Assembly (NCBI GenBank): GCA_945929845.1
Contig: CAMEON010000003.1
Location: 16,723 to 80,722, forward strand
Source of the DNA: an uncultured Clostridia bacterium
Lineage (GTDB): Bacteria > Bacillota > Clostridia > Oscillospirales > CAG-272
Length of the DNA: 64,000 nucleotides
Reading direction: 5' to 3'
In this document: piece by piece, positions 1-17,872 of the stretch
Numbering within the stretch: the stretch's first letter is position 1
How the letters are laid out: every line of letters starts with the position of its first letter
The notes under the pieces: model-generated
The model's database searches: none
Told to the model about the DNA's origin: nothing
What the model saw: the letters and a program-made list of their open reading frames with translations, nothing else
Translations under genes and position numbers: made by a program

Positions 1-836
1 GCACCTCCCACTACCGCGGGCAGAAGAAATACGAAAACAACTACTCCGGCTACCTCTTCTGCGGTGACTGCGGCTCGCCCATGTTCTCACGCAGTCGTCC
101 CGACCTTGCCGATGCCTATATCTGCGGCACCTACCACACAAGAGGAAAGGCAGGTTGCACCACCCATCACATCCGTGTGGACGTGCTTGACCGTGAGTTG
201 AAGCGATACGTGGAAAGACTCTGTCATACCTCGGAGGATATGCTGAAGCGGCTTGAAGCCGAGATCAGCTTTGAGCCGAGCGCCATTCAGGACAGCACGA
301 ATGCAACCGTAGAGCTTGCCGCCCTCATCGAACAGGAGAAGGAAGCGCTCAAGATTCTGATGCGTCAAAAGGCGCGCGACCTTTCGCGTGCCAAGGGCAA
401 CGAGGACGTCATCATGGAGATGTATGACGGTTTGATCGAAGAAGCCGCCAACCGCATCCACGGACTTGAAAACCAGATCGCCATGTCGGCAGATACGAGA
501 AACACCATCATTCGCGCCAACCGACACGCCAAGGCGGTGCTGGATATCTTCCGCGATATGCTGACCAAGGAAAAGCTCGACAAGCGCGATATCAGCCTCA
601 TCGTGGACAGAATCATCGTCTACGAAAACCGCATTGAGATAAAGCTCCGAAACGATGTGGACGCGCTCCTGCGGTGTGAGGACACGCACGATGTGCCGCC
701 CACAGAGGGGCAATCCGCAAATTTTAACGAGGACACTAAAAATATCGAAAGCGCCACAGAAAAATACAGCTCTGTGGCAGTACAATCAGCAAAAAACCAG
801 AATGATAAGGTTTTTAGTGTCAATGTTATCAGTGGC
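1..836 (+). mobile_element. Right-hand end of an integrated element (prophage, ICE or intervening element) inserted in spoVT. The junction is at about nt 830-840.
   Basis: A recombinase gene lies at the extreme end. An AT-rich tail (about 715-830) is followed by an abrupt switch to GC-rich spoVT-homologous sequence at about 837. Confidence 0.6.
3..836 (+). CDS. Large serine recombinase, C-terminal part. The 5' end lies left of the window, and there is no stop codon before the spoVT-derived segment.
   Basis: The frame is open from nt 3. YLFCGDCGSPMF...YICGTYHTRGKAGCTTHHIRV is the Cys-rich zinc ribbon of large serine recombinases. It is followed by a long Glu/Lys/Leu coiled-coil-like segment and a DRIIVYENRIEIKL tail as in TndX/TnpX/SpoIVCA-type enzymes. 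Confidence 0.75.
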
Positions 837-1313
837 GGAGACCCCCTGGAAATCTATACAGACCGCGAAGGCGAGGTCATATTCAAAAAGTATTCTCCCA
901 TCGGTGAGCTGGCAGCCTTTGCCGGGCAGTATGCCGAGACACTGCACAAGACCTGTGGATTATCGGTGGCCATTTGTGACAGGGATGCTATCATTGCCTG
1001 CGCCGGTATTCCCCGGAAGGAGTTCCACGACAAGCCGCTTTCCCCGTCTTTGGAAAGCATTATTGAGGGACGCAGTCTGTATGTCCATACAGAAGGTGGC
1101 GAGTTCAAGCCCTTGACCGCAGACAGTGACTCCCACTATATCCACTGCGCCATGCCCATCCTGACCGAGGGGGACATCATGGGCTGTGTGGTGTCGGTTC
1201 GCTCCCAGGGAGACGACAACGGCGGAGACAAAGCCTCCGTTCCCGGCCCGGATGTAGAGTCCAAGCTGATTCAGACCGCCGCCGGTTTTTTGGGCAGGCA
1301 GTTGGAAAGCTGA
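837..1313 (+). pseudogene. spoVT: spoVT 3' fragment (sporulation regulator SpoVT, GAF-like C-terminal domain). About 30 N-terminal codons are missing.
   Basis: GDPLEIYTDREGEVIFKKYSPIGEL...CDRDAIIACAG...TEGDIMGCVVSV...IQTAAGFLGRQLES is colinear with B. subtilis SpoVT (sequence recalled from memory) from about residue 31 to the C-terminus. The AbrB-type N-terminal hairpin is absent. Confidence 0.8.
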
Positions 1314-1423
1314 AGCCCACCGTATGACCGGGGCAGGCGCACAGGCACGGTGAGGCATCCTTCCGATGCCATCATCGTGCTTCGCCGGTACATAGATGAA
1401 ATGGGACGATGAAAAGTTGAAAC

Positions 1424-1456
1424 GGGAGAGCCGAAGCTCTCCCGCTTTTTGTTTTT
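1424..1456. terminator. Rho-independent terminator between convergent spoVT and the ABC operon
   Basis: GGGAGAGC-cgaa-GCTCTCCC hairpin followed by GCTTTTTGTTTTT. Confidence 0.75.
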
Positions 1457-1495
1457 CTGAAAGTCAAGTCGCTTCCTGAGCCGTCCCAAAGGACA

Positions 1496-2590
1496 TCAGT
1501 CTGCAGTCAGACCGGAGCGCTCGATACCCTGAACCAGGAAGTTCTGGCAGAACGCATACAGGATGACCAGCGGCATGATGATGCACAAGCCGCAGGTATT
1601 CCGAATGGCGGCGTAGTACATATTCTGTCCGGCGTAGTCCGTCTTCAGGGATGTAGGAATATCCACGATGTCCGGCATCAGGACGATCTTGGATGTGGTG
1701 AAGAACAGCTCGGTGTAGAAGTCATCTGTCCACTGCCAGCAGAAAGCGAACAGGAAGACAGTCACCATCATGGGTATGGACAGCGGCAGGATGATGGTTA
1801 CGAAGGTACGGAAGGTACCGGAACCATCGATGTAAGCCGACTCCTCCAGCGCATCAGGCACGCCAGTGAAGAACTGACGGAGCATGAAAATGTACAAACC
1901 GTTCTTGAAAGCCAGGCCGGTTGCCGACAGGATCAGCAGAGGCCAGTAGGTGTTGGTCAGGTTCACACCGCCATCCTTCAGAGGAATCAGGTGAATATTG
2001 GCCAGTACCGCATCCAGCCCTTCTATACCTGTGGACGCATGGCCACTGAGAAGGGACAGGATACCCCAGATGTCAAAGTACCGGAACTGCATGAACATGG
2101 AGAGCTGCAGGGTCTGGTGAGGCACCACCATGGTCAGAATGACCAGCAGCATGATCAGCTTGTTCCCGCGGAAGCGGAACTTCGCCAGTCCGTAGGCGAT
2201 CAGACAGCAAACGAAGGTTTGCAGGATGCCGCAGGACAGGGAGATGATCAGGGTATTCCGGAATGCTGAGAAGTATTTCAACTCTGTCAGGACTGCCTTA
2301 TAAATATCCAGTGTAAAGTTCTTGGGGATCAGTCGGACAGTCACATCCACGAAGTCCTCCGGGGACATGAAGGAGCCGGCGATCTTTGTAAAGAAGGGAT
2401 ACAGCACGACATAGGAGATACCGATCAGCAGGACCAGGCGGAAGATGTACCAAACCACCTTCTGGAAGAAGTACAGATTCACAAACTTAGCCTTGAGTCT
2501 GTCCTTCAGGGGCGTTCTTTCGAAATCCGCCTTGATCTTCCTTTTGGTTTCTTTGGTGATTCTGGGTGTAGAATTCATATTTGCGTCCAT
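1496..2590 (-). CDS. Carbohydrate ABC transporter permease (MalG/BPD_transp_1 type) with an N-terminal extension
   Basis: Multi-pass membrane protein with the EAA-loop motif EESAYIDGSGTFRTFVTIILPLSIP. At 364 aa it is longer than the usual ~280 aa. Confidence 0.85.
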   Translation of the reverse strand: MDANMNSTPRITKETKRKIKADFERTPLKDRLKAKFVNLYFFQKVVWYIFRLVLLIGISYVVLYPFFTKIAGSFMSPEDFVDVTVRLIPKNFTLDIYKAVLTELKYFSAFRNTLIISLSCGILQTFVCCLIAYGLAKFRFRGNKLIMLLVILTMVVPHQTLQLSMFMQFRYFDIWGILSLLSGHASTGIEGLDAVLANIHLIPLKDGGVNLTNTYWPLLILSATGLAFKNGLYIFMLRQFFTGVPDALEESAYIDGSGTFRTFVTIILPLSIPMMVTVFLFAFCWQWTDDFYTELFFTTSKIVLMPDIVDIPTSLKTDYAGQNMYYAAIRNTCGLCIIMPLVILYAFCQNFLVQGIERSGLTAD

Positions 2591-2602
2591 TCTTCTGCCT
2601 CC

Positions 2603-3580
2603 TTAATCTCGTTTCTGGTAGAATACGTAGGCGGAGAATATACCGGCAATGGCCGCCAGAATCAACATCACCAGCAGGAAGTACATCCAGGCCATGGCCG
2701 AGGAGTGTACCTGTCCATCCTGACTCTGATACACCGAGTTGATATACACCATCACCGTGTTGGAGTTGGTGGTGAAGGAGTCAATGATGGTATACACAGC
2801 GTTCACCAGGATCATGGGGCTGATCATGGGGAAGGTGATCTTCCAGAAGGTCTCCCATGCGGTGGCACCGTCAATGCGGCAGGCCTCATAAATAGCAGGA
2901 GAGATGGACTGAAGTCCGGCCAGGAATATCAGCATCTGAACGCCGGAACGGTTCACAATGTCATAGATGTTATTGATCATATCAACCACATACTCCACCA
3001 GTCCTGTACCTATCTTCATGGAAGAGAACAACCGTTCAATATCAATGGCTGATACGATCTCTGATGCCGCACTGGAATTGGATCCGTCGTTGATGCCGCC
3101 CGCTTCCTCCATGTAGGAACCAAGAATGTTCTGGCCCTCTACCGACTCCATAATACCGGTGGACAGGATGACGGGGATGAAGAATATGGCACGGAACACT
3201 GCACGGCCAGCCATCTTCTGGTTCAGAAGCACGGCCATGAACAGGGAGAACAGCAGGATCGCAGGGACATCAAAGGCAAGCTCCTTCAGTCCAGCCACCA
3301 GAGTCTGCACAAAGCTGGGATCCTCTGTCAGGGCGTACTTGTAGTTTTCAAGTCCTGCCCACTCCAGATGGTATCCGCCGCCGGTCACGATCTGGAGGTT
3401 GTAGAAGCTCATCCTGATCGAGTTGAGGATGATAGGCAGATACACGATGAGAAAGCCGATGACAAACGGGAGAACAAAGACCCAACCGGCCCGGGCCTTC
3501 CGCCGATCCAAAGAAGCGATTTTACGCTTCTTTGGCTTCGGGGCACTGACCGTGGATTGCAGTTTGACTTCATTGGTCAT
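2603..3580 (-). CDS. Carbohydrate ABC transporter permease (MalF type)
   Basis: EAA-loop motif EACRIDGATAWETFWKITFPMISP and 6 TM-like hydrophobic segments. It lies 12 nt from the partner permease. Confidence 0.85.
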   Translation of the reverse strand: MTNEVKLQSTVSAPKPKKRKIASLDRRKARAGWVFVLPFVIGFLIVYLPIILNSIRMSFYNLQIVTGGGYHLEWAGLENYKYALTEDPSFVQTLVAGLKELAFDVPAILLFSLFMAVLLNQKMAGRAVFRAIFFIPVILSTGIMESVEGQNILGSYMEEAGGINDGSNSSAASEIVSAIDIERLFSSMKIGTGLVEYVVDMINNIYDIVNRSGVQMLIFLAGLQSISPAIYEACRIDGATAWETFWKITFPMISPMILVNAVYTIIDSFTTNSNTVMVYINSVYQSQDGQVHSSAMAWMYFLLVMLILAAIAGIFSAYVFYQKRD

Positions 3581-3613
3581 AATATGTTACCTCTCTTTCT
3601 TTCTCCGGTCGGA

Positions 3614-6600
3614 TCAGCGCATGACAACCACATACCCATACGCAGGGATGGTATATGTGATTCCATCATACACGACGCTCACCGAGAAGTTGTTATAGTT
3701 CAGGAGGAACGTCTTATAGCCTTCATAACTGCCGTTGCTGGTCTTCTCGCCGTAGGTGACTGCCACAATGCGGCCGTCAGCGGACAGGTACTTGGAAGGA
3801 TCCTCTTCTTCCTCGTCTTCGATGACCGTCACCACACGGATCATATCGTCAATATCCTTCTCCGTCATGGTGGTTGTTGTGGTCACATAGTAGCGCAACA
3901 GGGTCTTCAGCTTTTCGCTGGCTGTGTACAGGTCATCGCCATACACCTCAGATACATGGAAGGTGGTCTCCTTGGCAGCGCTCAGCTTGGTCAGCACAGC
4001 GTTGTAGTAGTAATACCGGATGTAAGCTGAGATCTCGGCGCACAGGGCATCCTTTGCCTCACCCTCCTCGGACTGTGCATCCGTCAGGTACATACCTGCC
4101 AGCAGCTTCTCGTAGATCTCGTTGACCCATTCGCTCATTTCCTCATCGGTCTTGAGTCTGGTCAGGGCGTAATCCGGAAGCTCTCCACGGGCTGTGCCGG
4201 TCTTGGCAGCAGCAACCAGCTCGGATACGGGTGTCTGTACAAAGTCCTTGTCGAAATACTTAATGGCGTTCTTATACTTGGTAGAATTGGTAGCAGCGAG
4301 CTTGTTGCCATCGTAAAGGGACAGCGTGGGCACCTCATCCATCAGGTACTCAGAGAAGCTCTGGAACAACAGGTAGATGTAGTAGCTCTGCACATCGGAC
4401 GCCATGGAGTAGTTACCGCTGATGTAGTAGGTCACACGGGAAGCAACATCCTTGGTGAAAGCCGTCAGAGAGTTGTAGTCCTCCGAGAAGGATTCCACAT
4501 CGCCCAGCGCACGGAGGATCATGTCATACACCTCATAGTCTGTGGTGTTCTCCGTGATATTGGCTACGATCTGATCGTGCTTGGCGGCCACTGCGGCCCG
4601 GATGGTTGCATCCATAGCACCCATCTGGCTGTCGTAGTAGTAACTGATCACCTCAGCATCAGCCAGCTTGACCAGGTATACATAGTACACAAACTCGGTA
4701 GCCTCTGCCTCCAGATCCACGCTGTCCGCAAAGGTGTGCTGTTTCAGCTTGTCAACCAGGTCGGCAATGATGCCACCCAGGTCATCCACGCTGGCCGTAG
4801 CCACGGCTTCGGTCACATAAGTCAGAAATTCCTCATTGAGTGCGGCCTTGTCCGAAGTGCTTAGTCCCGCATCCTTGAAATCGAAGGTAGGCTTGCTCTT
4901 GTCGTCCAGACTGCCCACGATGAGAGTCGCATATGCCTTGGCGTAGGCCTTGGCAATGTTGTCACTCACATCGCCGTACATATCCTTGATCTCTTCAGCA
5001 ACGATGCTCAGCTTAGCGTTCAGGGTATCATCCTTCAGCATAGCCTCCAATGCTGCCTTGAAGCCTTCGGTCTTGCCGTATGCGTTCAGTCGGTTGTTGG
5101 CCAGTGCCGCCAGGGAAGAATCACTCTTGGTAGACACGGTAATGACGCTGAGAGAATCCACAGTGCCCTCCGGCTTCATCAAAGCGATGACTGCCTGATA
5201 GTACTTGCCTTCGATGTAATTTCTCACATCCGACTCAACGGTATCGGGGGTCAGGTAGGTAGCGAAAGGATCGGCACCTTCCTCACCGGCTTTGGTGATG
5301 ATCTTGACACAGTCGGCCACAGCCTTATTCAGAACATCTGCCGACACGACGGCATCCATGCTGTAGTTACCGTCAGTCACGCCGGAAAGCAGAGCGGTGA
5401 TCTGCTTGGAAATGATGCTGTTGATACTGGTGGTCAGTTTGTTGATGTTGGTGGTGTTGGCCACGACCTTACCCTTTTCATTGACACGGGTGGGATCGAA
5501 GTTCAGAGCAGGCACCACGCTGTTGTCGCTAAGCCCGCTGACGGAGGTGTAGAGTATATTCAGGAAGTAGCCCAGCACATTCTCATCCACCTCGCTCAGT
5601 CCGTTGGCTCCCTTCTCATCGGAGAGGATGGGGTCAAAGACATACGCATCGCCCAACAGCTCCCGGAGGTGCAGGATCAGTCCGCTGACGGAGGAGGAAC
5701 CCTCCACGATACCGTACTTGGCGGCCAGCTCTGCATCAGTCAGATCCTTGTTGGCATCCAGGTAACGGAGTGCCACATAATCCACCTCTGTCAGGCCGTA
5801 TTCCTTTTGAGCCAGCATCTCGTAGAGCTTTTCGCCCTTGCCGATGACACCGATCTGGCCTGCGGTATTCTCACCGTAGCAACTGTAGAGCAGGTTGGAG
5901 ATGTGCACATACAGGAAGGTATCCACCTCTGCCTTGTCCACAGTCAGGTTGAACCGGACACCCAGCTGCTGCTCTATCATCGCCCTGGCAGATTCCAACT
6001 GCTCTCTGGCCTCGTCAATGATGCTCTGGGGTACACCTTCGGTTGCACCGATCAGGGTCTGTCCTTCCTCTGCCACCTTCAACAGGTTGGTCAGATTCTC
6101 ATACTCGGTCTCCAGTGTCAGGATCGCACGGGAGATGTTGCGAACATAGGTCTTGAGCTGTGGCGAAGCCTGCTTCTGTGTCGTCTCGGCAGAGATCAGC
6201 AGGGGAGACAATGCCTCCTTGTCCTCGGCAGAAGCGGCTTCATACTCAGCCAGCACCTTCTGATAGGCTGCATTCGCCTCCGTGTATGCGGCCAGGCGGC
6301 GCTCATAGGAGCGTTCACCGGTGACATAGAGGTAGGCGGCACCGCTGATGCTGCTGTAGTTGGTGATGCAGGAGTTGATGAAATCCTTGGCAGAAGTCTG
6401 CACGCTGGCGATGTTCTTACGGGCATCGGCTACAGCCTGACTCTGCTGCTGGCGCTCATACTCGTCCTTGTTGATCTGGTAATCCAGCACCTGCTCGAAC
6501 TCGGCCAGGATATCGTTCTCCAGCTCGTCGGTATCCGGTACACGCATACCGCTGAGGAACTCGTGGTCAATGATCAGCTTATCCTGTACATCCTTCAGTA

Positions 6601-9349
6601 CACCGTTCACCTCGTTGTAGATCTCCACGACATCGTCGTACCAGATGTCGTACCGGATGGAGTAGTACTGGCTCAGGAGGTACCACTCCTTGAGCAGCTC
6701 GGTGTTGGTGTAGGACAGGGTGAAATACAGGGAAGCACCGTTCTCAATGGCCTTCAGCTTGGCATAGTTCACATCGCCTTCCATGTTCAGCGGAGATCCG
6801 GCGAAATTCATGTAGCCGTGAAGCACCACGCCGATGAAGGGCACGCTGTAGCTGGAGCGGATATACCGGCTGGAGTCAAGGGCCACATCCAGGATGTGAT
6901 CCACATACTTCCAGGTGTAGACATTACCGCCGTCCACCATGACCTCCAGGTTGGACTTCTCCTCAGAGGACAGGTAATCCAGTGCCTTCTGAACGAAGCC
7001 TCTGGAGTCCTCCCGGTTGAAAGGTTCATCCTCGTCGAAGTCGGAGTTCAGGTCGCTGCCCAGCGTACCTACCGAGATACCGGTCACATTGTCGTACTTC
7101 AGGTAGTTGGACACCAGCTTCTCATAGAAGTGGCTGAAGTAAGCGGGGGAGATAGCCAGCATGCCGACGCTCATGTACCGCTGCTGGGTAGGCATATACT
7201 GCCGCTTATTGGTATACCGGTCGTCGATGGTCTTGACGGCATGCTTTCTCAGGGACAGCCCGTCAAACAGGCCGGTCTCGTTGACATAGGAGAAATCGAA
7301 GTCCGGGAAGATACCCAGGTTGCCATCGGTCACGCCGGCGGCGTAATCGAACAGCTCCTGCATACTGGTATCCTTGGACACGGCACGCTCCCACTTGAGC
7401 CGGTAAGGCATCTTGGCGTACATACCGCCGTTGGCAAAGCCGGTCAGCTTGAAGTTGATGTTGGTCACACCGTCAGCCGACAGCTCCTCGTACATGGTGA
7501 TAATGTCAGCCGCTGAAGTCAGGGCTTTCTTGACCGTGACCGGGATGGAGGCGATCTTCTCAATGGTCTCCAGGGATCCGAAGGCCTCAATGTACATCGG
7601 AATGTCGCCGGAGGTCTCCTCCTCAGTCAGACGGGACAGGACACCCTTGTTCACCAGATAATCCCGGTAGGCAAAGGCCATACCCAGCCAGGTTGCCTCA
7701 TACCATCCGTCAGCCTTCAGCTCTCCGGCCGCCACTTTTTCCTCGGCGACAGTCTCGTCGGTGAGCATGATGTAGTGAACCTTGAAGTTACCGGTGTACT
7801 TCCGGTCGGTGATGACAGTCCACTCGGTGTTGGTACCGACGGAAATGGAATCTGCCAGGTTGTAAGAGTCCTGAGGCCGGGGGTTGAAGTTCATCATGAC
7901 GGTGTCATAGGGAGACAGCACGCCGGAATGGTAGTACACCATATTGGTCAGCGCATCGCCTTCCTCGATGATAGCCGTAAAGCCCCTGTTCACCGTCACA
8001 GGACGGATCTCACTGGCCGAGGAAATCAGCGTGGCGTAGTCCTTGAACGCCGCGGGTACCGTTGTTCCCTCCTTCTGGGCATCCACCACCTTATCGTAGA
8101 TCAGACCGGAAATGGTCGTGGTCTTGATCTCACCGGTATCGTCATCGTACTCATCGCACTCATAGTACTGGGTATTCTCTACGATACCGAAGGCAGGATA
8201 GCGAACGACCTGCTGGTAGGTACCGGTGATCTGGTGGTAGGCATAGTCAGCACCGTAGATCTTGCTGGCCACGGAGGTGGTGTTGGTGTTGACCAGATCC
8301 TCCATGGAGAACAGGGTACCGGAGCCGTCCGGATAGAAGACATAGCCCTCATAGGCGTTGTTGCCTGCACCCATGTACGGCAGGATGCTGATATTGGTAA
8401 GCTGGTAGAGAGATTCGTTGAAGGTCAGACCGTTGACAGGCAGACGGACAGTGAAGCCGTCGTCCTCCAGGGTATACTCCAGTGCCATCTTGAACACGGG
8501 AGGATTGGTCTCGTCGCTCTCATACCCGGTGAGCTGATGGTCGTAGTCCATCTCCTCGTAGGAATACTCCGGGCAGGCGGCCTTGATCAGCTCCTCCACC
8601 TTTTCGATCTCGGTGGCGCTGGCTGTGGGGTCAAAGACCCAGATGTCCATCTCTGCGGTGATGGGGAAGGAAGCAAGCATATCCTGCTTCAGTCGGTCTG
8701 TGGCGCAGGCATCCAGATCCTTCACACCGTTGGCACCGCCATAGTAAGCCAAAAACTTCTTATAGTAGAAGTTGTCTTCATCGCCGCCATAGTACTCCAG
8801 CATGGGAGCCAGTATCTTCTCCCGGAAGCGGGAGTCCTCGATCCAACGGGGAACCAGGTGTCTGGCCTCCTCACGGCCGATGATGTACTCCACACGGATA
8901 CCGTTCTTGATATTCTTGACCGTGATCTGATCCCGGAGGGAGGCGTACTCATAGCTGCTGAATTCCTTCTCCTTGCCGTTATCCGTGTACTTGATGATGA
9001 TCTGGGAGAGATTCTGATACTTGATGCTTTCCGAAGAATTGCTGGCTCCCACATCATAGGGGTTGGTACTGATGATCTGACCGGTGACAGTATTCTTCAC
9101 CGCCACCTCACCGGAGTACTCGTCACAGTAGATCTGATAGTTGCCCTTTGTGAGCTTCAGCTTCATGGTGGCGAGCTTATCCTCCGGCGTGGCGAACACC
9201 TTTGTCAGATAATCGATCTGATTTTTCTTTTCCGTTTCCGTCTCAGTCGTTGTCTCCTCAGCCGCCACCGAGACAGTGAAAACCGTCACGACACTGCACA
9301 GCATGACAACAGCTAAGAGCAGGGAAAGGATCTTTTTACATTTCATCAT
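3614..9349 (-). CDS. Secreted 1911-aa protein of unknown function. The N-terminal ~900 aa resemble the DUF5696 family, and the C-terminal ~1000 aa are helical and Tyr-rich.
   Basis: Signal peptide MMKCKKILSLLLAVVMLCSVVTVFTVSVAA/EE. ILPYMGAGNNAYEGYVFYPDGSGTLF and the following alpha/beta segment match my recollection of DUF5696. Long uninterrupted ORF with no competing homologous ORF. Confidence 0.7.
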   Translation of the reverse strand: MMKCKKILSLLLAVVMLCSVVTVFTVSVAAEETTTETETEKKNQIDYLTKVFATPEDKLATMKLKLTKGNYQIYCDEYSGEVAVKNTVTGQIISTNPYDVGASNSSESIKYQNLSQIIIKYTDNGKEKEFSSYEYASLRDQITVKNIKNGIRVEYIIGREEARHLVPRWIEDSRFREKILAPMLEYYGGDEDNFYYKKFLAYYGGANGVKDLDACATDRLKQDMLASFPITAEMDIWVFDPTASATEIEKVEELIKAACPEYSYEEMDYDHQLTGYESDETNPPVFKMALEYTLEDDGFTVRLPVNGLTFNESLYQLTNISILPYMGAGNNAYEGYVFYPDGSGTLFSMEDLVNTNTTSVASKIYGADYAYHQITGTYQQVVRYPAFGIVENTQYYECDEYDDDTGEIKTTTISGLIYDKVVDAQKEGTTVPAAFKDYATLISSASEIRPVTVNRGFTAIIEEGDALTNMVYYHSGVLSPYDTVMMNFNPRPQDSYNLADSISVGTNTEWTVITDRKYTGNFKVHYIMLTDETVAEEKVAAGELKADGWYEATWLGMAFAYRDYLVNKGVLSRLTEEETSGDIPMYIEAFGSLETIEKIASIPVTVKKALTSAADIITMYEELSADGVTNINFKLTGFANGGMYAKMPYRLKWERAVSKDTSMQELFDYAAGVTDGNLGIFPDFDFSYVNETGLFDGLSLRKHAVKTIDDRYTNKRQYMPTQQRYMSVGMLAISPAYFSHFYEKLVSNYLKYDNVTGISVGTLGSDLNSDFDEDEPFNREDSRGFVQKALDYLSSEEKSNLEVMVDGGNVYTWKYVDHILDVALDSSRYIRSSYSVPFIGVVLHGYMNFAGSPLNMEGDVNYAKLKAIENGASLYFTLSYTNTELLKEWYLLSQYYSIRYDIWYDDVVEIYNEVNGVLKDVQDKLIIDHEFLSGMRVPDTDELENDILAEFEQVLDYQINKDEYERQQQSQAVADARKNIASVQTSAKDFINSCITNYSSISGAAYLYVTGERSYERRLAAYTEANAAYQKVLAEYEAASAEDKEALSPLLISAETTQKQASPQLKTYVRNISRAILTLETEYENLTNLLKVAEEGQTLIGATEGVPQSIIDEAREQLESARAMIEQQLGVRFNLTVDKAEVDTFLYVHISNLLYSCYGENTAGQIGVIGKGEKLYEMLAQKEYGLTEVDYVALRYLDANKDLTDAELAAKYGIVEGSSSVSGLILHLRELLGDAYVFDPILSDEKGANGLSEVDENVLGYFLNILYTSVSGLSDNSVVPALNFDPTRVNEKGKVVANTTNINKLTTSINSIISKQITALLSGVTDGNYSMDAVVSADVLNKAVADCVKIITKAGEEGADPFATYLTPDTVESDVRNYIEGKYYQAVIALMKPEGTVDSLSVITVSTKSDSSLAALANNRLNAYGKTEGFKAALEAMLKDDTLNAKLSIVAEEIKDMYGDVSDNIAKAYAKAYATLIVGSLDDKSKPTFDFKDAGLSTSDKAALNEEFLTYVTEAVATASVDDLGGIIADLVDKLKQHTFADSVDLEAEATEFVYYVYLVKLADAEVISYYYDSQMGAMDATIRAAVAAKHDQIVANITENTTDYEVYDMILRALGDVESFSEDYNSLTAFTKDVASRVTYYISGNYSMASDVQSYYIYLLFQSFSEYLMDEVPTLSLYDGNKLAATNSTKYKNAIKYFDKDFVQTPVSELVAAAKTGTARGELPDYALTRLKTDEEMSEWVNEIYEKLLAGMYLTDAQSEEGEAKDALCAEISAYIRYYYYNAVLTKLSAAKETTFHVSEVYGDDLYTASEKLKTLLRYYVTTTTTMTEKDIDDMIRVVTVIEDEEEEDPSKYLSADGRIVAVTYGEKTSNGSYEGYKTFLLNYNNFSVSVVYDGITYTIPAYGYVVVMR

Positions 9350-9369
9350 TCAGGCTTCTCCTATCTGCG

Positions 9370-11535
9370 TTAGATTCTGTACTGAATTTCGGTGACAAGG
9401 TTGGTGATCAGGCTGACGATCTTTCCGACCAGCGTAGTGAACAGGACGGCAATGAACATGATGAAGACCATCGCTACCACTGTACCCAGAACCGTGATCA
9501 CATTCTTACCCATAGAGTAATCGTGTGTCACCATGGTGCCGAAGAAGATCAGGATACCCAGCCAGATGAAGGCCAGTGTGCCGATGAAGCTGACGATCTG
9601 GGTCTCTGTGGTCACACAGAAGTTGGAATAAATGGTCGCAGGGATAATGAGCAGGGGCAACGGCACCAGGCTGTAGGAGCAGGCGATGAAGATATCCTTG
9701 AAGGAACCTTCGCCCTCAAACAGGGTAGTCAGGCACCAGTTGGCCAGGACGAACAGGAACAGCGGAACCAGCACGCCCAGCACCTGTGCCCATACGCCGG
9801 CATAGCCGCCGTTGGGATTCATCAGATACCCCTGGCCGATGGCCTGGTAGTAGAAGGTGGCGATCGCCAGCACGATAAAGAAGACGGATGCTCTCACCGA
9901 GCCGCGCTTCTCATGCTTCAGATCCCAGAAGCCGTCGAAGGGATGGAAGATCACATGGAAGCCGTAGGCGACCTCCTGCCAGAAGGTGCGCTTCTTTCCG
10001 GAAACCGCCACCTTCTTGTTGATCTTGGCCATGGTGCGGAAGAACAGCACCACACCCACGATGACAACCACAATGATGAGCAGCAGAACAATGAAGTAAG
10101 TGGACATCCATTCCTTCCGGATCTCCTTATAGGAGTTGGACCAGTTGGTGGTATCGTATGCGGATTCAAAGTAGGTAAGGGAGTTTGCGTAGTCCTTGTT
10201 CCGGTACATGGCCTGGCCGATACCGACATAGGCTGAGTCGAAGTTGGAGTTCCGCTTCAGCACATCCGTCCACAGATCGATGGCCAGGTCGTAATCCTGC
10301 GTACTCTCAGCGGCGATAGCCTGAAGCAGAATGTCGCCGTACTCGGTGCGCTGGAACACGGTGATATTGTTGTTGGTCTTATCCAGAACCATCAGGTTGG
10401 TATCCTGATAGGCTACAGCCTCAATACTGCCCAGGTTACCCAGCATGGTACCGTTATCACCGAAGGCAAAGAGCAGGTTGCCGTCAAAGTCATAGGTGTA
10501 GATACGGTTTCTCTTCTCGTCAATGAGGGACCAGGTGTTCTCCGGGCCGACAGCCACATCAATGATGGTGGACACGCCAGTGATATCATCGGTGGAGCGG
10601 GTTGAGAAGTCAATTTCACCGGCGGGAATATGGAAGCCGTTCCGGCGCATGATCTCCGTACCGTTGGCATTGAGAAGCTTGACGGGGGAATACTTACCGG
10701 ACTTATCGTTTCCTCTGATGGATGCTTCCACATCCGCATCGTCAATGGTGGAGGTGGTGGCGTACACCAGGTTCTTCTCCCGGTTGATGGCCACATTGTT
10801 GAACTCCGTGGACACCACTGTCTCAGAGGCTTCCCTCTGCGCATCGGTCTGGAAGCGTCGCCAGATGATATCCCAAGCGGACAGGGACACGGCCTGGGCA
10901 CCGATGAATCCGGTGAATTCACCGGCATCGGTCATGACGATGACGCCCTGATAGGTGGTGGAGGACACCACATACAGACGGTTGTAAGCGTCCACGGCAA
11001 TGGCCACCGGCTTATAGACCGAGTTTTCATCGAAAAGCTGGGATTCCGGCTCCTCGATGATGCGGACGAACTCTCCGTTCTCATCAAAGACCACGACCCG
11101 GTTGGAGCCGGTATCGCAGACCCAGATCAGGCGGTCATACTTTTCATTCGGCTCGCTGACGAACACACCCTGGGGAGCAGCCAGACTGTCCGGCACGCCC
11201 TGGTCGTTGTCAAACTCGGAGATGGTAAACTTCAGCTTGTAGTAGCGGTCCAGCACCACGATGCGGTTGTTGCCGGTGTCGGCGATGTAGATGTTCTGGT
11301 TCAGGTCAGTGACCATATCCCCGGGGTTGGCCAGGGGGATCTCCAGTCCCATATCCACCGCATTGACTGCCTTGATAGCGGTATACGCATCCGGAGAATA
11401 CAGAGCCTTACCATCCTTATCGTAGGTGTAGGTCTGGTAGGCAGAGCCGGCACTGGAGGTGACGACCAGGGAGGAAGCCACCATCAGCAGGGAAAAGATT
11501 ACACAGAGACACTTTTTCATACTCATTTTCTTCAT
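9370..11535 (-). CDS. Secreted NHL-repeat beta-propeller / TPR / C-terminal Yip1-type 5-TM membrane domain protein
   Basis: Signal peptide. NHL-like blades (NIYIADTGNNRIVVLD, IWVCDTGSNRVVVFD, RLYVVSS). TPR-like DLWTDVLKRNSNFDSAYVGIGQAMYRNKDYANSLTYFE. Five hydrophobic helices at the C-terminus. Confidence 0.7.
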   Translation of the reverse strand: MKKMSMKKCLCVIFSLLMVASSLVVTSSAGSAYQTYTYDKDGKALYSPDAYTAIKAVNAVDMGLEIPLANPGDMVTDLNQNIYIADTGNNRIVVLDRYYKLKFTISEFDNDQGVPDSLAAPQGVFVSEPNEKYDRLIWVCDTGSNRVVVFDENGEFVRIIEEPESQLFDENSVYKPVAIAVDAYNRLYVVSSTTYQGVIVMTDAGEFTGFIGAQAVSLSAWDIIWRRFQTDAQREASETVVSTEFNNVAINREKNLVYATTSTIDDADVEASIRGNDKSGKYSPVKLLNANGTEIMRRNGFHIPAGEIDFSTRSTDDITGVSTIIDVAVGPENTWSLIDEKRNRIYTYDFDGNLLFAFGDNGTMLGNLGSIEAVAYQDTNLMVLDKTNNNITVFQRTEYGDILLQAIAAESTQDYDLAIDLWTDVLKRNSNFDSAYVGIGQAMYRNKDYANSLTYFESAYDTTNWSNSYKEIRKEWMSTYFIVLLLIIVVVIVGVVLFFRTMAKINKKVAVSGKKRTFWQEVAYGFHVIFHPFDGFWDLKHEKRGSVRASVFFIVLAIATFYYQAIGQGYLMNPNGGYAGVWAQVLGVLVPLFLFVLANWCLTTLFEGEGSFKDIFIACSYSLVPLPLLIIPATIYSNFCVTTETQIVSFIGTLAFIWLGILIFFGTMVTHDYSMGKNVITVLGTVVAMVFIMFIAVLFTTLVGKIVSLITNLVTEIQYRI

Positions 11536-11548
11536 ATCAGCACCTCCG

Positions 11549-12421
11549 TTAATCCTTCATACCACTGGAACCCATAGTCTCTATGATGTTTGACTGGGAT
11601 ACGACGAAGACCAGGATAGGCACCAGCATCATGATGACCTGAGCAGCGGCGGAAGCACCGGCACGCTTGATACCTCCGGCGGTGATCTGACCGATGGCAT
11701 AGTTCAGCGACTTGTACTGCTCGGAGTAGATGTACATGGATGCGCCTGCGTTCCACAGCCCTTGGAAGGAGTAGATGATCAGCGTCAGCCAGGCAGGCTT
11801 GACCATGGGCATAGCGATGATCCAGAAGGTTCGGAACTCGCCGGCACCGTCCAAACGGGCGGATTCCAGTACCGAGTCGTTGACATTGGTATCCATGAAC
11901 TGCTTCATCAGGTACAGACCCAGGGAGGAACACCAAGCCGGGACGATCAATGCCCAGTAGGTATCCAGCCAATGCAGGTTCGCCATCAGAATGAAGGAAG
12001 TAATTGCGGTGACGGTGGAGTTGAACATCAGGGACAGCTGTACGATCTGGAACATCCCCTCCCGGCCGGGGAACTTGATCTTAGCCAGGGCGTAGGAGGC
12101 CATGGAGGCCAGCAACAGGTGTCCGAAGGTACCGGCCACGGATGTCAGCAGGGTATTGAATATGTACCGGGAGAAGGGCACCCAGGAGATATTCATCAGG
12201 GTGAACAGGTCGCGGAAATTCTTGAATGTGGGGCTGATGACATAGAATCGGGGCGGGAACATCCACAGCTCATCCAACGGCTTCAGCGACTGGATAAGGA
12301 TGTACCACATGGGGAGGAACATGAACAGGCCCAGGTTGATCAGAATGATGGAAATACCTGTGTCGCCCCCCGCCGAACGGGCCAGGACGACCTTATGATT
12401 TCTTGTTCTTAATTTTGCCAT
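11549..12421 (-). CDS. Carbohydrate ABC transporter permease (MalG type), second pair
   Basis: EAA-loop motif ESARLDGAGEFRTFWIIAMPMVKP; 290 aa; 6 TM. Confidence 0.85.
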   Translation of the reverse strand: MAKLRTRNHKVVLARSAGGDTGISIILINLGLFMFLPMWYILIQSLKPLDELWMFPPRFYVISPTFKNFRDLFTLMNISWVPFSRYIFNTLLTSVAGTFGHLLLASMASYALAKIKFPGREGMFQIVQLSLMFNSTVTAITSFILMANLHWLDTYWALIVPAWCSSLGLYLMKQFMDTNVNDSVLESARLDGAGEFRTFWIIAMPMVKPAWLTLIIYSFQGLWNAGASMYIYSEQYKSLNYAIGQITAGGIKRAGASAAAQVIMMLVPILVFVVSQSNIIETMGSSGMKD

Positions 12422-12422
12422 A

Positions 12423-13367
12423 TCACGTACCTAACCTTGAAATTATTTTCTTGACCAGCAAGTTGGCACCGACCATGATGAGAAATAGCAGCACGGCGAT
12501 GGCCGACGAGTAACCGATCTCATACCGCTGGCCTCCGTAGTCCTCCAGATGGTGCATGATGGTGTGGGCACAGTAGTTGACAGACGGGAAGCCCGCCAGA
12601 GCCGTGACGATACCACCGAAGCCGAAGGAGCCTGTGATGGACATGACGGCACCGAACATCAGCTGAGGCTTCATGGACGGCAGGGTGATGTAGTACAGCT
12701 CCTGCCACCGGTTGCGGACACCGTCCACAGCTCCGGCCTCGAACAGGGAGTGATCGATACCTTGCAGACCGGCGATGAAAGCCAGGAAGGAGGTACCCAA
12801 AGAGGTCCACAGGGCAACGATGATACACAGGGGCATGACATACTTTTCGTCCTGAAACCAGGCAATTTCGGTATCAATGATACCCAGCTTCAGCAACACG
12901 GCGTTGGCCCAGCCGTAGGAGTCAGACGAGAACAGGGTTGCCCAGATCAGGTACGCCTGACCGGAAATAGACGGTGCGTAGAAAATCAGGGTGACGATGG
13001 CGCGAACCTTGGGGGGCAGCTCATTGATGAACCACGCCACCAGGAAGGACATCAGGTAGGACGCAGGGCCTACGATGACGGCGAAGATGAAGGTGTTCTT
13101 GATGGCGATGAGGAACACATCGTCATCAAAGAACAGCGTCACATAATTCTTCAGCCACACGATATTCGGGACTTCCAACATGTTGAAGTCGGTAAAGCTG
13201 AGCAAAATGGAGAAGACGACAGGCACGATGGTGAACAGGGTAAAGAAGATCATGTAGGGGGCGACCATCAGGTAAGCGACCCAGTTCTGCTTGGCTTCTT
13301 TCAGCTTCCATTGCATCTTTGTCAATTCTCGCGAGGTGGCTTTTTTCTCTGCTGTTTTTGTAGCCAT
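12423..13367 (-). CDS. Carbohydrate ABC transporter permease (MalF type), second pair
   Basis: EAA-loop motif EAGAVDGVRNRWQELYYITLPSMKP; 314 aa. There is a 1-nt gap to the downstream permease. Confidence 0.85.
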   Translation of the reverse strand: MATKTAEKKATSRELTKMQWKLKEAKQNWVAYLMVAPYMIFFTLFTIVPVVFSILLSFTDFNMLEVPNIVWLKNYVTLFFDDDVFLIAIKNTFIFAVIVGPASYLMSFLVAWFINELPPKVRAIVTLIFYAPSISGQAYLIWATLFSSDSYGWANAVLLKLGIIDTEIAWFQDEKYVMPLCIIVALWTSLGTSFLAFIAGLQGIDHSLFEAGAVDGVRNRWQELYYITLPSMKPQLMFGAVMSITGSFGFGGIVTALAGFPSVNYCAHTIMHHLEDYGGQRYEIGYSSAIAVLLFLIMVGANLLVKKIISRLGT

Positions 13368-13416
13368 TTACTCTCTCTCCTTACATAGATTGGTTTTGGA
13401 GTCTGTACACAAACAG

Positions 13417-16400
13417 TTACATCAGACCGTTGATGTCATCCAGGAAGTCTGCCAGGCACTTGAACTGTGTGATGATCTCTGATGTATTCTTGTACACCTC
13501 GTAAGAGAAGCACTTGCGTACCTTCTTCTTTTCAGCCTTGGTCAGGGATGTATCGTCCATGTCGTATCCCATGGTGGCATTTCTGTCCTCCACGAACTTG
13601 GAACCATCGGGGTCCAGCTTCCCATACAACTCCCGGACAGCGTCAGCGGCAGTGAGCAGGGCGGCCTGGTTCTCGCTCTTGATGGCGGACTCCACCTGTT
13701 TCAGAAGAGCATCATACTCAGAGGAGTAGCTACCGTTGCTGCGGATCAGCTCCACAAGCTGGCCAGCCTGTGCCAGGCGCTTCTCCAAGAGGTTGGTGTA
13801 ATCCACATCTCCGTCAGACAGCGTCTCCAGGTTGAACTCGTTCCGTTTCCGCTCAATCTCCTTGTTGATGGTGTTGATGTACTGCAACAGGCTGTCGGAG
13901 GGATCGGCTTTATCGTTGAAGGCACTGAGGAAGGCGAAGTTGGTGTAACGGTCGATGATGTAGTATCCGGGGTAGTTGGGCACGGAAGCCAGGTTTTCGA
14001 ACTGACTCTGCACCTGCGCATACTCACTGGTGGTCCAGGGCAGGCTGGCCAAGGCCTTGCCGTTAGCCGTGGGCTGTTTTGCGGAGGGACCCAGAATAGC
14101 GACCATCTCGTTGGCAAAGCTGACCTGGCACTTCTCGCCGGTGTACCACTTCATGAAATCCCAGGCGCGGTCTCTCTGCTCGCCCTCGCATCCCTTGACC
14201 ATGACCACAGCAGTCACCGCAGAAATGGACACATTGTTGACGCTTCCGTCCTCCTGAAGCTCGCCGGGCAGGGGCATGAACTCCCACTTACCCTCGATCT
14301 CGGTGGCGAACACCTTGAGCTGGTTGTACACGCCGGTGTAGTCGCCAAGCACGATGGGCATCTCGCCGGTACGGAACCGGTTGGCAGCATTGTAAATGTA
14401 CGGGAAGGAATACATGGTGAACAGGTCGCACATCTTCTCGAAGGAAGCCAGACCCACCTGGGAATCCAGGTTGATGCGCATGCCGTTGTCAGCGAACAGG
14501 TCACCGTTATTCTGATACAGGAAGATCTTGTAGTCGGTGGTCAGACCGATCTGCATATTCTTGGACTGGAGGACGGGGATGCACGCCATCAGCTCATTCC
14601 AGGTCCGGGGAACCTCCAGATCCAGGTCAGCCAGGATGTCCGTCCGGACGAACATCATGGGGAAGGACTGGTTCTCAGGCAGGCCGTAGCAATGGGTGAT
14701 CTGATCCGCATCTTCCATGCTCAAAACCACCATGGCGGCGTCGTTGAAGCTCTCTGTCGTCTCCTCGAAGTCCTCAAACCCTTCAATATTTACAAGGGCG
14801 GAACGGATGGCGTAGTTGATGACATCCGCCTGACCCAGGCCAAGGTACACATCCGGGCCGGATTCTGCCAGGATGGAGGGTAGCAGGGTACCGCCGGCCA
14901 CCAGCTTCAGATCCACGGCAATGTCGGAGTTGGGGGTGTAGTCGTTGTTGATCAGGCTACGGAGAACCTGAGACTGGTCACGGGCGGTAGCCAGCCACAC
15001 CTCCACGGACTCGGCGCTGCTCTCCTCCATGGCGCCCATGCTGTTGTAGTCACGGACAAAGCTCTGGAAGAAGCCCTTCACCTCATGCAGGAAGGACTGG
15101 AAGAAGTTCGGTGTAGCCTTGGGCAGATCTGCACCGGCGGGCTGGATCAGCACATAGTCCAACTGAAGCGGCTGGGTCTGTGCATCGGACAGGAAGGTAC
15201 CCAGTGTACCGATGTTGGTCTTGAGGGACTCCAGGTTCTTTGCCACATCGTCGTCATCCTTGCCCATCTCGTCCAGCAGTCGGGCGATCTTCTCCAGTGT
15301 AGCCACATTGGAAGATTTCTCACCGGCCAGCTCGGTCAGCAGATCCGCCATATCATAGAGGCGGATGGACTGCTTGACCATATCGATCATGGTGTCCGGC
15401 ATGACAGAGGTAAACTCGTAGTCACGCAGGCTGTCAGGGGATGCGCCGGTCAGCTTCATGATGTTCAGGTAATCATTGTTGATATGGGTCAGCACATCCT
15501 CAACCTCGTTGACCAGCTCGCCCATTTTGCCCAGCGTCACTTCAAAACGGATGGTATACTCCACGCCGGCCTGAAGGTACACCTGGAAGTCAGTCAGCTG
15601 ATCCTTGGCGTTGATCTTGCCGTCTCCGTTGGTATCGGTGCGGTCTCCCAGGGTCAGGGTGGTCACCTGCCAGCTGGTGCTATAATTATAGGTAAGCTGC
15701 TTAGCCTCGGCAAAGGGAGCACCGTTGTAGTAACCGCGGTCGCCTTCATTCAGCCCGGTGCTGTACAGGTACATGGCACGGCATACGGAGATACCGTCCA
15801 GCACATCCTGCTTGTAGCGGGACACGATGTCGTACATACCGGAGCTGTCCACCTTAAAGGTGTACTCCAGCCACTGACCGGCGGTCTGCCACTTCTCGCC
15901 GCCCACCGTGTTCAGCACGGAGCGGGTTGCATCCGTGGGGGAATTGATGGCGCAGGCGCGATCCTCCACCGGGTAGATGGTGGTGTGAGAGGTGGCGGAG
16001 GTGAATTCGCCCTCCAGCTTGATGGTATCCTGGCCGGGGGCTACACCCTCATACTGCTTGATATACTCCTCGTAGGAAGGAGCAAGCTCCAGGGGATAGA
16101 GCGTGATGGAGCCAATGGTCATGGGCTCGTTCTTGCTCTCCAGGGTAATGGTATTTTCGCCGGCCTCCAGAACGAACTCAAAGTCGTCCATGTAGTACCC
16201 ACTGGAATCCTTCACATAGTAGGTCATCCACTTGGGTGTCTGTACCGAGCCGGGGCGAAGCTCATTTTTCTCCACATCGATCACGAAGTACCGGACAAGA
16301 TGCGCCTCGCAGAAGTCTGTCATGGCGGCTGTCATGTAGTCCGGCTTGGAGAAAGTGACCTTCCCATCCTGGATGGTCACATTGCTGAACCCGGCACTCT

Positions 16401-16944: not shown

Positions 16945-17807
16945 TCACTTTTCCTCCTGGTTGGTTTTTCGGAACGCCACCCGGGACAGGTGCGGCATTC
17001 CATGGGGTATTCTGCCATGTCGGGTGCATAGGAAAGTCCCTGTCCGCACCCTCCCTGCGTGTCAGCCGCCCCGGTTCTGAGCGGAAAGCAACGATTGCGC
17101 CGAAGGCGGGCGCAACGCCGCCGTGTTTCCAGCCGGAAACAGCAGACGCCAAGCAGTGAAGCAGACATATGTACACGAAGCCAGGACAGAAAGCCACCGT
17201 CGGCGGCCGGAACAGCCGTCGGCACACGCAAAACCAGCCCCAGAGCCGTGTGAGCACGGCCCAAAGGATAACAGAGCCGTCACCTCAAGGTCGAGGGACG
17301 GGTCATTCTATCTCTGCGTGCTGAGCCTTTTCCGTCGGGACAACTGCACAACACCCCAAATTGACCCCTACATCATACCACAAAAGTGCCAAAATGTCAA
17401 GAGGTTCTGCGGTCTCCATCATATATAACCATCCCCGGAAGCGGGAAGACTTGGAAGGTTTTCGCTTGTTCACAATTTATTCACGGAAAGGTGTCCCGTT
17501 CTCTCTTCCATTTGACACATTCCATCGAACGCTTTTCATAGCAAAATACAGGGTGCTTTCACTTCCTTTTCCGGAACTTTTTTTGGTTTTTCACATATCA
17601 TTCACATTTTGACATATATTTTTTACTGTTTTTTAACCTTTTATTCAAATAAAGAGACCGTTGCACGGCCTCTTTTCGCAATCTTATGATTTCATTCACC
17701 AATGAACCGCCCCGCCGGGTATAGTCGTTTTGCACAAATTTTGGGCAACTTTTTCTACACTCCGTCAAAACCAACAAATTTGCTGTTCCTTCTTTTTGCA
17801 TTCGGTC

Positions 17808-17836
17808 TTGCAATCTTGGGCGGAATGTGTTATACT
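17808..17836 (+). promoter_or_regulatory. SigA-type promoter of the RlmI-like gene
   Basis: TTGCAA (17808-17813), 17-nt spacer, TATACT (17831-17836) preceded by TGT (extended -10). RBS AAGGAAG lies before the ATG at 17873. Confidence 0.7.
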
Positions 17837-17872
17837 GTTCGCAGTTTTTGACGGCAAGAAAGGAAGCCACGC

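Follow-up and report, generated by a model that had tools for sequence, protein, structure and literature searches.

The closest described counterparts of the locus analyzed here are the intervening elements that split sporulation genes. Both skin, with its recombinase SpoIVCA, in sigK of Bacillus subtilis and Clostridioides difficile, and SPbeta, with SprA and SprB, in spsM carry a serine recombinase at one end of a prophage-like element whose precise excision rebuilds the open reading frame (ORF) of the split gene (PMC4191935, PMC5025042); and the characterized elements of this kind reside in mother-cell genes and are excised only in that cell, for which reason they are not lost (PMC4191935). 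The gin element in gerE of Bacillus cereus is an element other than a prophage that has serine recombinases and lies within the gene of a small sporulation regulator (PMC5595907), while integrative mobilizable elements (IMEs) with serine integrases join the integrase to a relaxase, to MobC or NikA and to cargo genes, with no conjugation apparatus (PMC5704250). In each of these respects there is a likeness to the element family of the locus considered in this work—the excision being in our case one that we infer—which locus occupies the left edge of a 64,000-nt stretch of DNA from an uncultured Clostridia bacterium of the Oscillospirales (CAG-272; GCA_945929845.1, contig CAMEON010000003.1, positions 16,723-80,722 of the forward strand), hereafter the window. 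We consider it highly probable that this edge lies inside a serine-recombinase element integrated in the sporulation gene spoVT, with the attachment (att) sites, the crossover and the chimeric ORFs described below; which degree of confidence applies to that structural account alone, the timing and the purpose of excision being excluded from it.

A reading frame shared by a recombinase and spoVT

The third forward frame of the window is free of stops from nt 3 to the termination codon at nt 1311-1313, with 11 and 18 stops in the remaining two forward frames. Its translation matches the Pfam families Zn_ribbon_recom at residues 15-69 (E 1.6e-12) and SpoVT_C at residues 302-435 (E 5.4e-35); profile positions 27-180 of TIGR02851 (spore_V_T) correspond to residues 276-435, and nt 828-1307 align with residues 28-177 of B. 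subtilis SpoVT (PDB 2w1t). The preliminary description of this DNA had read here one uninterrupted frame that encodes the C-terminal half of a large serine recombinase and then, after an AT-rich stretch, SpoVT up to its natural stop, with some 30 hairpin codons missing; all of which is borne out. Codons 1-31 of spoVT are not present at the junction, nor does any further piece of that gene occur anywhere in the 64 kb of the window, and the SpoVT portion, at 141.9 bits against a TIGR02851 cut-off of 235.9, falls short of a full-length equivalog. The window copy of spoVT is a 3' fragment, which in its present form specifies no functional SpoVT.

The recombinase portion, truncated at its 5' end by the window edge, spans nt 3-674 of the forward strand and closes with the residues DVDALLR; it comprises the zinc ribbon (nt 45-209) followed by a coiled coil and the C-terminal domain. 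Since the unfused distant relatives of the recombinase (at most 43% identity, 540-670 aa) cease to align near residue 225 of the window translation, the catalytic and DNA-binding body must end at about nt 674. Beyond that point, on the same strand, there follow a variable AT-rich linker of 43 codons (nt 675-803), predicted to be disordered and open in the recombinase frame up to the att site, the GC content being 0.36-0.46 at nt 701-825 against about 0.55 in the neighborhood; then 12 codons of the element's P arm (nt 804-839, translated DKVFSVNVISGG), which segment is conserved at the DNA level in 85 loci and includes at nt 818-839 the 22-nt P half-site TGTCAATGTTATCAGTGGCGGA; then the crossover dinucleotide GA (nt 840-841), those being the first two bases of the spoVT codon Asp32; and finally the host-derived 3' portion of spoVT from Asp32 to the natural stop (nt 840-1313), encoding the latter half of the AbrB-type hairpin domain and the whole GAF-like C-terminal domain. 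The attR site, composed of the P half-site, GA and the host B' half-site (CCCCCTGGAAATCTATACAGAC), extends over nt 818-863, as delimited by a three-way comparison of attB (locus L085), attL (locus L156) and attR (the window). Further downstream, the intrinsic terminator of spoVT (nt 1423-1454, forward strand; a 9-bp stem with seven GC pairs, a 4-nt loop and a T-run) also ends the recombinase transcript while the element is integrated.

In the AlphaFold model of a full-length relative (protein P0001) the SpoVT part reached values of 84-91 and the linker values below 50 in the predicted local distance difference test, and the SpoVT part is accordingly predicted by that model to fold independently behind a flexible linker. 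The same model contains long helices at residues 365-494; for the recombinase half the model is unreliable (predicted template-modeling score of 0.29).

Host and element sequences on either side of the junction

The locus L085 carries an intact gene for a 204-aa SpoVT (P0121), 98% identical to the query, which gene is followed, as in the window, by that of a 364-aa ATP-binding-cassette (ABC) permease. L085 and the window are collinear rightwards from nt 840, with 95.8% identity over 1,870 bp, and bear no relation to each other to the left of that position. This same-locus empty site provided the alignment with an intact-spoVT relative through which attB was to be defined, and by means of it the split, formerly placed at about nt 830-840, could be refined to nt 840-841. 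In the comparison with L001, the closest relative, the homology to the window stops instead at the stop codon, and the genes beyond differ.

The two halves of the fusion have not diverged in parallel: the pairwise identities of the recombinase half and the SpoVT half are uncorrelated (r = -0.16), with discordant pairs at 97% identity in the recombinase versus 37% in SpoVT and, elsewhere, 86% versus 100%; and the synonymous divergence (dS) in the same pairs is 0.55 for the recombinase versus 1.10 for SpoVT. Because of this independent divergence and of the empty site in L085, the SpoVT part is host DNA at its native locus. The opposite proposal, namely that the SpoVT-like part were cargo of the element, was rejected in view of that discordance and of the presence of the same downstream gene at the empty site. 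The recombinase belongs to a horizontally moving element.

Attachment sites and crossover

The host attB is the DNA that codes for the conserved RRTMRIREGDPLEIYTD hairpin of SpoVT. It reads ATGCGGATTCGGGAAGGC-GA-CCCCCTGGAAATC in L085, and the attR of the window reads GTCAATGTTATCAGTGGCGGA-GA-CCCCCTGGAAATC. The opposite junction, attL, whose existence with the 5' codons of spoVT had been anticipated, was absent from the first four related loci, in which the elements exceed the 10-kb flanks, and was first found in L081 (MKATGIVRRIDDLGRVVIPKEIRRTMRIREGDPLQ), 6 kb upstream of the fusion gene and on the same strand. Metagenomes were next scanned with a pattern in which eight unconstrained bases separate the codons for I-[RK]-E-G-D-P from the predicted half-site. 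At least 120 matches resulted, where chance would give about one; in each of the 80 that were examined, a short tail ending in a stop comes after SpoVT codons 1-33. Upon excision in silico, the left half of attL and the right half of the window together gave a 188-aa SpoVT. The remaining site, attP, was located on two short contigs (L089 and L090) in the form GTCAATGTT-N12-GA-N12-AACATTGAC, a 44-bp near-palindrome whose dyad in L089 is centered exactly on the GA; in the in-silico recombination of attL with attR, 18 of 22 positions were symmetric in attP versus 8 of 22 in attB. With attB, attL and attP all at hand, the interpretation of the window junction as the attR-type end of a serine-recombinase element in spoVT, which the preliminary description had put forward, has held up.

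The P half-site, 18 of whose 22 positions form a dyad with the P' arm around the GA, is conserved in the 85 loci at synonymous positions too, with a dS of 0.19 versus 0.45-0.55 in the flanking segments. These sites have the form typical of serine integrases: short imperfect dyads around a nonpalindromic central dinucleotide that sets the polarity. The crossover maps to the GA at nt 840-841, where the homology with L085 begins, and the break at that dinucleotide is base-precise in four independent comparisons, namely those with L085, L088, the attP of L089, and L221. Strand exchange at the GA integrates the element.

Two of those comparisons involve targets other than spoVT. In L088 (positions 2902-3468; ENA ERZ28657267), a 437-bp 3' remnant of the recombinase meets the 3' end of a YoaP-like gene exactly at the GA, with an acyl-CoA-ligase-like ORF on the left and with homology to the window ending exactly at nt 841; the copy at this secondary site is decayed. 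In L221 (positions 4757-4918; Logan ERR13995532), the first 27 codons of cas1 are joined to the P' arm and the tail, the GA being at nt 4835 and the junction reading YMVIRGEDP, then TLTTLTHVARFVHALMDLSKRIGLE and a stop; the disrupted cas1 stands directly downstream of cas9, and the B arm has 11 of 22 bases in common with the attB of spoVT; this is a secondary-site insertion. A change of polarity was observed as well: L090 contains at positions 1799-1842 a variant attP with the central dinucleotide flipped to TC, while L151 (positions 612-2429) is an integrated TC form, whose 606-aa recombinase lies on the opposite strand and reads into the antisense of spoVT codons 1-31.

Certain other candidates for attP were discarded. 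The protein P0243, from L088, belongs to the decayed remnant just mentioned; P0285 and other fragment proteins with non-SpoVT tails look like truncated remnants by sequence, and among such fragment proteins a true attP was present in L089 and L090 only. The two best INPHARED matches, labeled "Bacteriophage sp." and from human feces (L086, MT836658.1; L087, MT839487.1) are chromosomal fragments with an integrated fusion, which in both adjoins recN, argR and nadK-like genes.

Recurrence among Oscillospirales and selection on the frame

When the 436-aa product of the window frame was used as a query, over 120 protein clusters were obtained, which are about 735 aa long and 58-92% identical and all of which have the architecture Resolvase, Recombinase, Zn_ribbon and SpoVT_C. 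The full-length relative P0001 matched Resolvase at 6.6e-15, Recombinase at 3.5e-22 and Zn_ribbon at 3.5e-12; with the zinc ribbon in the window and all three domains in P0001, the protein is a large serine recombinase, and since it scores below the cut-offs of the named NCBIfam equivalogs CcrB and XisF, it is neither of these. With each GTDB species represented by a single genome, relatives were found in 518 genomes; the fusion architecture was checked in the best 80 of those 518 matches, all of which cover the whole fusion and come from Oscillospirales, including Acutalibacteraceae, Oscillospiraceae, Ruminococcus flavefaciens 007c, Flavonifractor, Lawsonibacter and others.

The same attR junction is present in 85 loci (the window plus 84), which derive from independent assemblies with isolate genomes among them, and the recombinase always continues into SpoVT in frame and without a stop. 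The linker in between varies from 12 to 62 aa; 80 sequences exhibit 24 different lengths of it, and it is always in frame; in the recombinase frame it is open in all of the 79 distinct sequences, versus 21 and 1 of the 79 in the other two frames. Because the frame is kept open throughout across those 24 lengths, the read-through must be maintained by selection. The ratio of nonsynonymous to synonymous substitution (dN/dS) is 0.12 in the recombinase, 0.41 in the linker and 0.22 in the SpoVT 3' part, the last of which contains no stop or frameshift in any of the 85 loci; and more than 98% of the copies are in the orientation that produces the SpoVT fusion.

Exchange of C-termini on integration

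The attP site lies within the 3' end of the recombinase ORF. In the excised form that ORF crosses attP and ends about 25-40 codons further on, at a conserved tail contributed by the other end of the element. The first residues of the tail, TTLT, are the translated P' half-site, and its pattern is ..TLT....F..A...L..R.., in which the F, A/G, L and R are at helical spacing and are conserved in 66-67 of 69 distinct tails, at positions farther out than an att half-site can reach.

Since attP is inside the recombinase ORF, integration swaps the C-termini and generates two chimeric ORFs: at attL, SpoVT residues 1-33 followed by the recombinase's native C-terminal tail of about 25 aa; and at attR, the recombinase followed by the disordered linker and SpoVT residues 32-188, with a gain of about 150 aa and the acquisition of the stop codon and terminator of spoVT. 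The recombinase gene is then complete only in the circle. The preliminary description had remarked on a recombinase that lacks a stop codon of its own, which remark is correct for the integrated state, but not for the excised one, in which the ORF ends on the conserved tail across attP.

That the frame is conserved and open can most simply be explained by a need for the tail in the integration-competent enzyme. The fusion to SpoVT follows from the geometry of the sites, because the GA occupies codon positions 1 and 2 in both of them. In the flipped-core variant, however, the recombinase reads into antisense spoVT, and in P0307 (813 aa, a 31% identical large serine recombinase) the ORF is continued by the C-terminal portion of an NMT1/THI5-like substrate-binding protein (profile positions 122-249 of 252); read-through into the target is thus a habit of the family, for which a fusion to SpoVT_C specifically is unnecessary.

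As long as the gene is occupied, spoVT would be nonfunctional, half of the AbrB-type DNA-binding hairpin domain having been removed; and the structure of the sites suggests that precise excision by the recombinase together with a directionality factor would restore spoVT and, with it, the full-length recombinase gene. Position and conservation single out, as the leading candidate for such a factor, an ORF of 70-90 aa that occurs in 47 loci about 120 nt upstream of the recombinase and on the same strand (for example L001:9618-9884, L004:9689-9913 and L084:9650-9877), with the motif ..VEIWLTRAE..L.PLY.EYK.KKY.V.VF.SG..DL...T..LL.HN. The restoration of spoVT by excision is consistent with the 85 of 85 intact 3' parts and the dN/dS of 0.22, although a recent acquisition would give the same picture; and the intact allele of L085, which comes from a 95.8%-identical genome, may never have been occupied.

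Several observations weigh against this account of the element. The attL of the window's own element is beyond the window's left edge and could not be traced in the same species, the nearest instances (L140, L156 and L164) coming from a related species only, with 88% identity over 117 nt. The attP form is very rare in assemblies, being confined to the two short contigs; in IMG/VR the attP palindrome pattern matched unrelated hairpins only and the strict attL pattern nothing, and a protein search across the in-silico attP junction returned no recombinase of the attP form. In addition, the small ORF had no match in Pfam, PHROGs or NCBIfam; and L081, L088 and L221 are decayed or at secondary sites, so that not every copy is active.

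Carriers and cargo

To the left of the recombinase, 23 loci have a relaxase of family PF03432 (MobA/VirD2), 16 have NikA/MobC and six have MobA_MobL, along with AAA_25, helix-turn-helix (HTH) proteins, Bro-N and RhuM in relatives; L001 possesses a NikA-like gene and an S24 repressor. By this gene content the carriers in the relatives are IMEs. Virion or lysis genes were absent within 10 kb in most loci, and IMG/VR held only six relatives; phage tail genes adjoin the fusion in L095, however, and L090 has an ORF that we judged by eye to be XhlA-like. The recombination module rides on varied carriers, mobilizable elements and apparent prophages, often with anti-phage cargo, and moves horizontally among Oscillospirales.

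As read from the ORFs, L114 contains a full CRISPR-Cas module, from Cas3 through Cas1 and Cas2, at 396-8184 nt to the right of attL; L132 and L154 have type I restriction-modification genes just inside attL; and L109 and L129 have helicase, macro-domain, ATPase or PLD genes at the left ends of their elements. The spoVT site, broadly conserved over 45 bp, is a landing pad for islands laden with defense genes, sometimes with two elements per gene.

No locus with 8-12 kb of flanking sequence spans a whole element, and most elements exceed 10 kb, for which reason the other junction of the window's element must be well to the left of the window. The sole locus with both junctions within 10 kb is L081 (positions 5705-11705), whose 6-kb interval encodes SCIFF, its radical-SAM maturase and an Orn/Lys/Arg decarboxylase, with no mobility genes, and whose P' half-site is degenerate, reading QITW and not TTLT; this locus is probably a fossilized or remodeled element.

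Other arrangements of spoVT were encountered during the survey. In L119 (positions 986-6144), L162 and L173, and likewise with protein P0392, a tandem of three serine recombinases that share 25-27% identity with P0001 stands directly upstream of a sequence reading LTQA, then DDLGRVVIPKEIRRTMRIREGDP and the tail. Two different elements therefore split spoVT in those loci, one near codon 10-11 and one at codon 32. In L101, L115 and L141, foreign sequence replaces the first 8-16 codons of spoVT; and the hairpin-coding region of the gene looks like an insertion hot spot. Finally, in L166 (positions 86-1202), L170 (2014-3515), L150 and L174, an attL-type fragment with promoter, codons 1-33 and tail is followed 0.4-0.7 kb further on by a complete spoVT. 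The duplicated 5' segments in these four loci are only 72-93% identical and must for that reason be of different origins; one possibility is that a defective circle with captured spoVT 5' DNA entered by homologous recombination.

Forespore expression and the significance of excision

In both B. subtilis and C. difficile, spoVT is expressed in the forespore, its control lying with sigma-F/sigma-G, and the gene is needed for heat-resistant spores in C. difficile (PMC3789822). The element shares with the sporulation intervening elements an insertion within the coding sequence, here at codon 32, but its target is not a mother-cell gene; and the precedents of skin in sigK and SPbeta in spsM, to which the preliminary description had appealed, cannot be directly transferred to this gene (PMC3789822).

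Strict textbook sigma-factor consensus strings were not enriched; a promoter signal was found after a relaxation by one position and with a weight matrix. A sigma-G/F-type promoter, GYATA-N17-AAYAMTA, is present upstream of the host spoVT in 35 of 56 regions versus 0.8 in shuffles, and the empty site of L085 has it as well. When scored with the weight matrix of the spoVT promoter, the regions upstream of the small ORF had a median of 6.4 versus -1.5 in the controls, which include spurious ORFs (Mann-Whitney p = 5e-13); scores of at least 10 were obtained in 26% of the former versus 3.8% of the latter, the -10 ending at -18 to -22. These values give weak hints that the small ORF might be forespore-expressed in a subset of the elements.

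The structural account itself has had to be weighed against an artefact, whether through faulty assembly at nt 830-840 or because the spoVT seen here is a dead partial copy and the real one lies elsewhere, which suspicion arises from the window's being cut at its left edge. That explanation is effectively refuted: the same junction recurs in the 85 loci, whose assemblies are independent; at that very locus an intact allele is found, followed by the same gene; fragments with the spoVT 5' codons exist; the SpoVT part is free of disabling mutations; and the GA break is precise to the base in all four comparisons. None of the findings that the preliminary description had named as fatal—an intact second spoVT elsewhere, the lack of a 5' fragment or an assembly error—was encountered. 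We also think it quite improbable that the fusion of the recombinase with SpoVT_C is functional as such, with the GAF-like domain acting as a sensor or oligomerization module that would control the integrated-state recombinase, be it by locking or by a signal-dependent excision. The selection on the read-through (79 of 79 open), the predicted independent folding of the SpoVT part behind a flexible linker, the more than 98% of copies in the fusing orientation and the ability of engineered C-terminal fusions to switch the directionality of serine integrases (PMC5737554) would all agree with such a function; but the read-through is sufficiently accounted for if the ORF has to extend to the conserved tail when in the attP form, the SpoVT part tracks the host and not the recombinase, with no co-adaptation, flipped-core elements read antisense spoVT (L151), and relatives read into unrelated genes (P0307).

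As to what the insertion means for the host, the view that it is plainly parasitic or neutral deserves serious consideration, even if we stop short of calling it probable. According to that view, the conserved hairpin DNA is a broad-host landing pad, SpoVT and probably proper sporulation have been lost, excision serves horizontal transfer only, and the fusion ORF is a by-product of having attP in the 3' end of a gene. Sporulation has been lost in many gut Firmicutes; the carriers are mobilizable elements and apparent prophages with defense cargo; the recombinase is also found in cas1 and in a yoaP-like gene; and decayed copies, double insertions, an attL remnant beside a whole spoVT in some genomes and a flipped-core variant without the SpoVT fusion are all in keeping with it. 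What such a view leaves to be accounted for is the absence of any stop or frameshift from the 85 spoVT 3' parts at a dN/dS of 0.22—which a recent acquisition could explain—along with the forespore-type promoter signal upstream of the small ORF and the cost to spore-transmitted gut anaerobes of losing a gene whose loss in C. difficile abolishes heat-resistant spores. The alternative of a forespore switch, which extends our preferred account of the element rather than competing with it, would have excision in the forespore during sporulation restore spoVT while the circle stays in the nondividing spore and, by means of the full-length recombinase gene regenerated on it, re-integrates at germination. 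The forespore expression of spoVT and its requirement for heat-resistant spores in C. difficile (PMC3789822), the promoter of the host gene (35 of 56 versus 0.8), the scores of the small-ORF upstream regions above those of the controls, the 85 of 85 intact SpoVT 3' parts at that same dN/dS and the conserved recombinase tail that excision regenerates all point in that direction; we nevertheless hold the switch to be rather unlikely, in that the promoter signal occurs in only about one-quarter of the elements and is weak in the clade nearest to the window, attP forms are rare, some spoVT genes are split twice by two different elements, and every characterized precedent excises in the mother cell (PMC4191935). 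The complete scheme, in which a directionality factor made in the forespore triggers a single recombination that rebuilds two genes, after which the circle persists and re-integrates at germination, we judge to be unlikely; if true, it would overthrow the rule by which a sporulation-gene intervening element can be tolerated in a mother-cell gene only. An abundant family in a forespore regulator either breaks that mother-cell rule or marks a widespread loss of sporulation, driven by mobile elements, in gut Oscillospirales; both of which possibilities can be tested in cultured carriers such as R. flavefaciens 007c, Ruminococcus sp. Marseille-P6503 and Oscillospiraceae bacterium 50-58.

Other features of the window

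At window positions 52325-52452 on the reverse strand there is a flavin-mononucleotide (FMN) riboswitch (Rfam RF00050, 102 bits), upstream of the ORF of a 243-aa membrane protein (51433-52164, reverse strand). The GC content is 0.52-0.56 in positions 1-18000 versus 0.58-0.64 in 18000-64000; the low-GC part, in which there are ABC permeases for sugars and an ORF of 1,911 aa whose N-terminus resembles a signal peptide (3614-9349, reverse strand), may be a separate island or simply a carbohydrate-utilization locus.

Comparison with known systems

Nowhere in the full-text literature and supplements searched, to the exclusion of most subscription journals, is spoVT described as a target of integration, which result agrees with the preliminary description; large computational catalogues of serine integrases may list the site without comment. 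Among solved recombinase structures the nearest is that of SprA, a distant match at 64 bits. Skin and SPbeta differ from the spoVT elements in having mother-cell targets and an excision confined to the mother cell, whereby the germ line keeps the element, whereas spoVT is a forespore gene. To our knowledge, an att site within the recombinase ORF has not been reported for either; the spoVT elements, unlike skin and SPbeta, have their attP inside that ORF and a recombinase translationally fused to the target. The loci L119, L162 and L173, with serine recombinases—three in tandem—in spoVT, are the ones that resemble gin; gerE, however, is a mother-cell regulator, a fusion ORF is not described for gin, and the spoVT family is far more widespread and comprises relaxase-bearing mobilizable elements. 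With respect to the IMEs with serine integrases, the spoVT elements differ in that the target is inside a coding sequence, which is thereby disrupted, and in that the same module also appears to be carried by prophages.

Precedents for an attP within the integrase gene, with differing proteins in the free and integrated states, exist in the Myxococcus phage Mx8, where intP becomes intX, and in the Sulfolobus virus SSV1; these are tyrosine recombinases that target tRNA genes, with neither an in-frame fusion to a host domain nor a reciprocal transfer of a tail. In the mycobacteriophages BPs and Brujita, the state of integration alters the C-terminus of the repressor, again with a tyrosine integrase; and in the Listeria phage phi10403S, inserted in comK, a reversible excision serves as a switch with the element being kept, which process takes place in vegetative cells inside phagosomes.

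Engineered fusions of integrases with recombination directionality factors demonstrate that a C-terminal addition can change the direction of recombination (PMC5737554; PDB 9dxd, SprA-SprB). The spoVT fusions are, by contrast, natural ones, in which the appended domain is a fragment of a host transcription factor with no known effect on the recombinase. Since the integrated and the excised states encode different enzymes, the family offers a natural case of state-dependent C-terminal remodeling of a large serine integrase, which remodeling is of relevance to the control of directionality and to the engineering of integrases. Set beside all these systems, the unusual features of the spoVT elements are the forespore target, the reciprocal swap of C-termini, the breadth of distribution across the Oscillospirales and the use of spoVT as a landing pad by several types of element.

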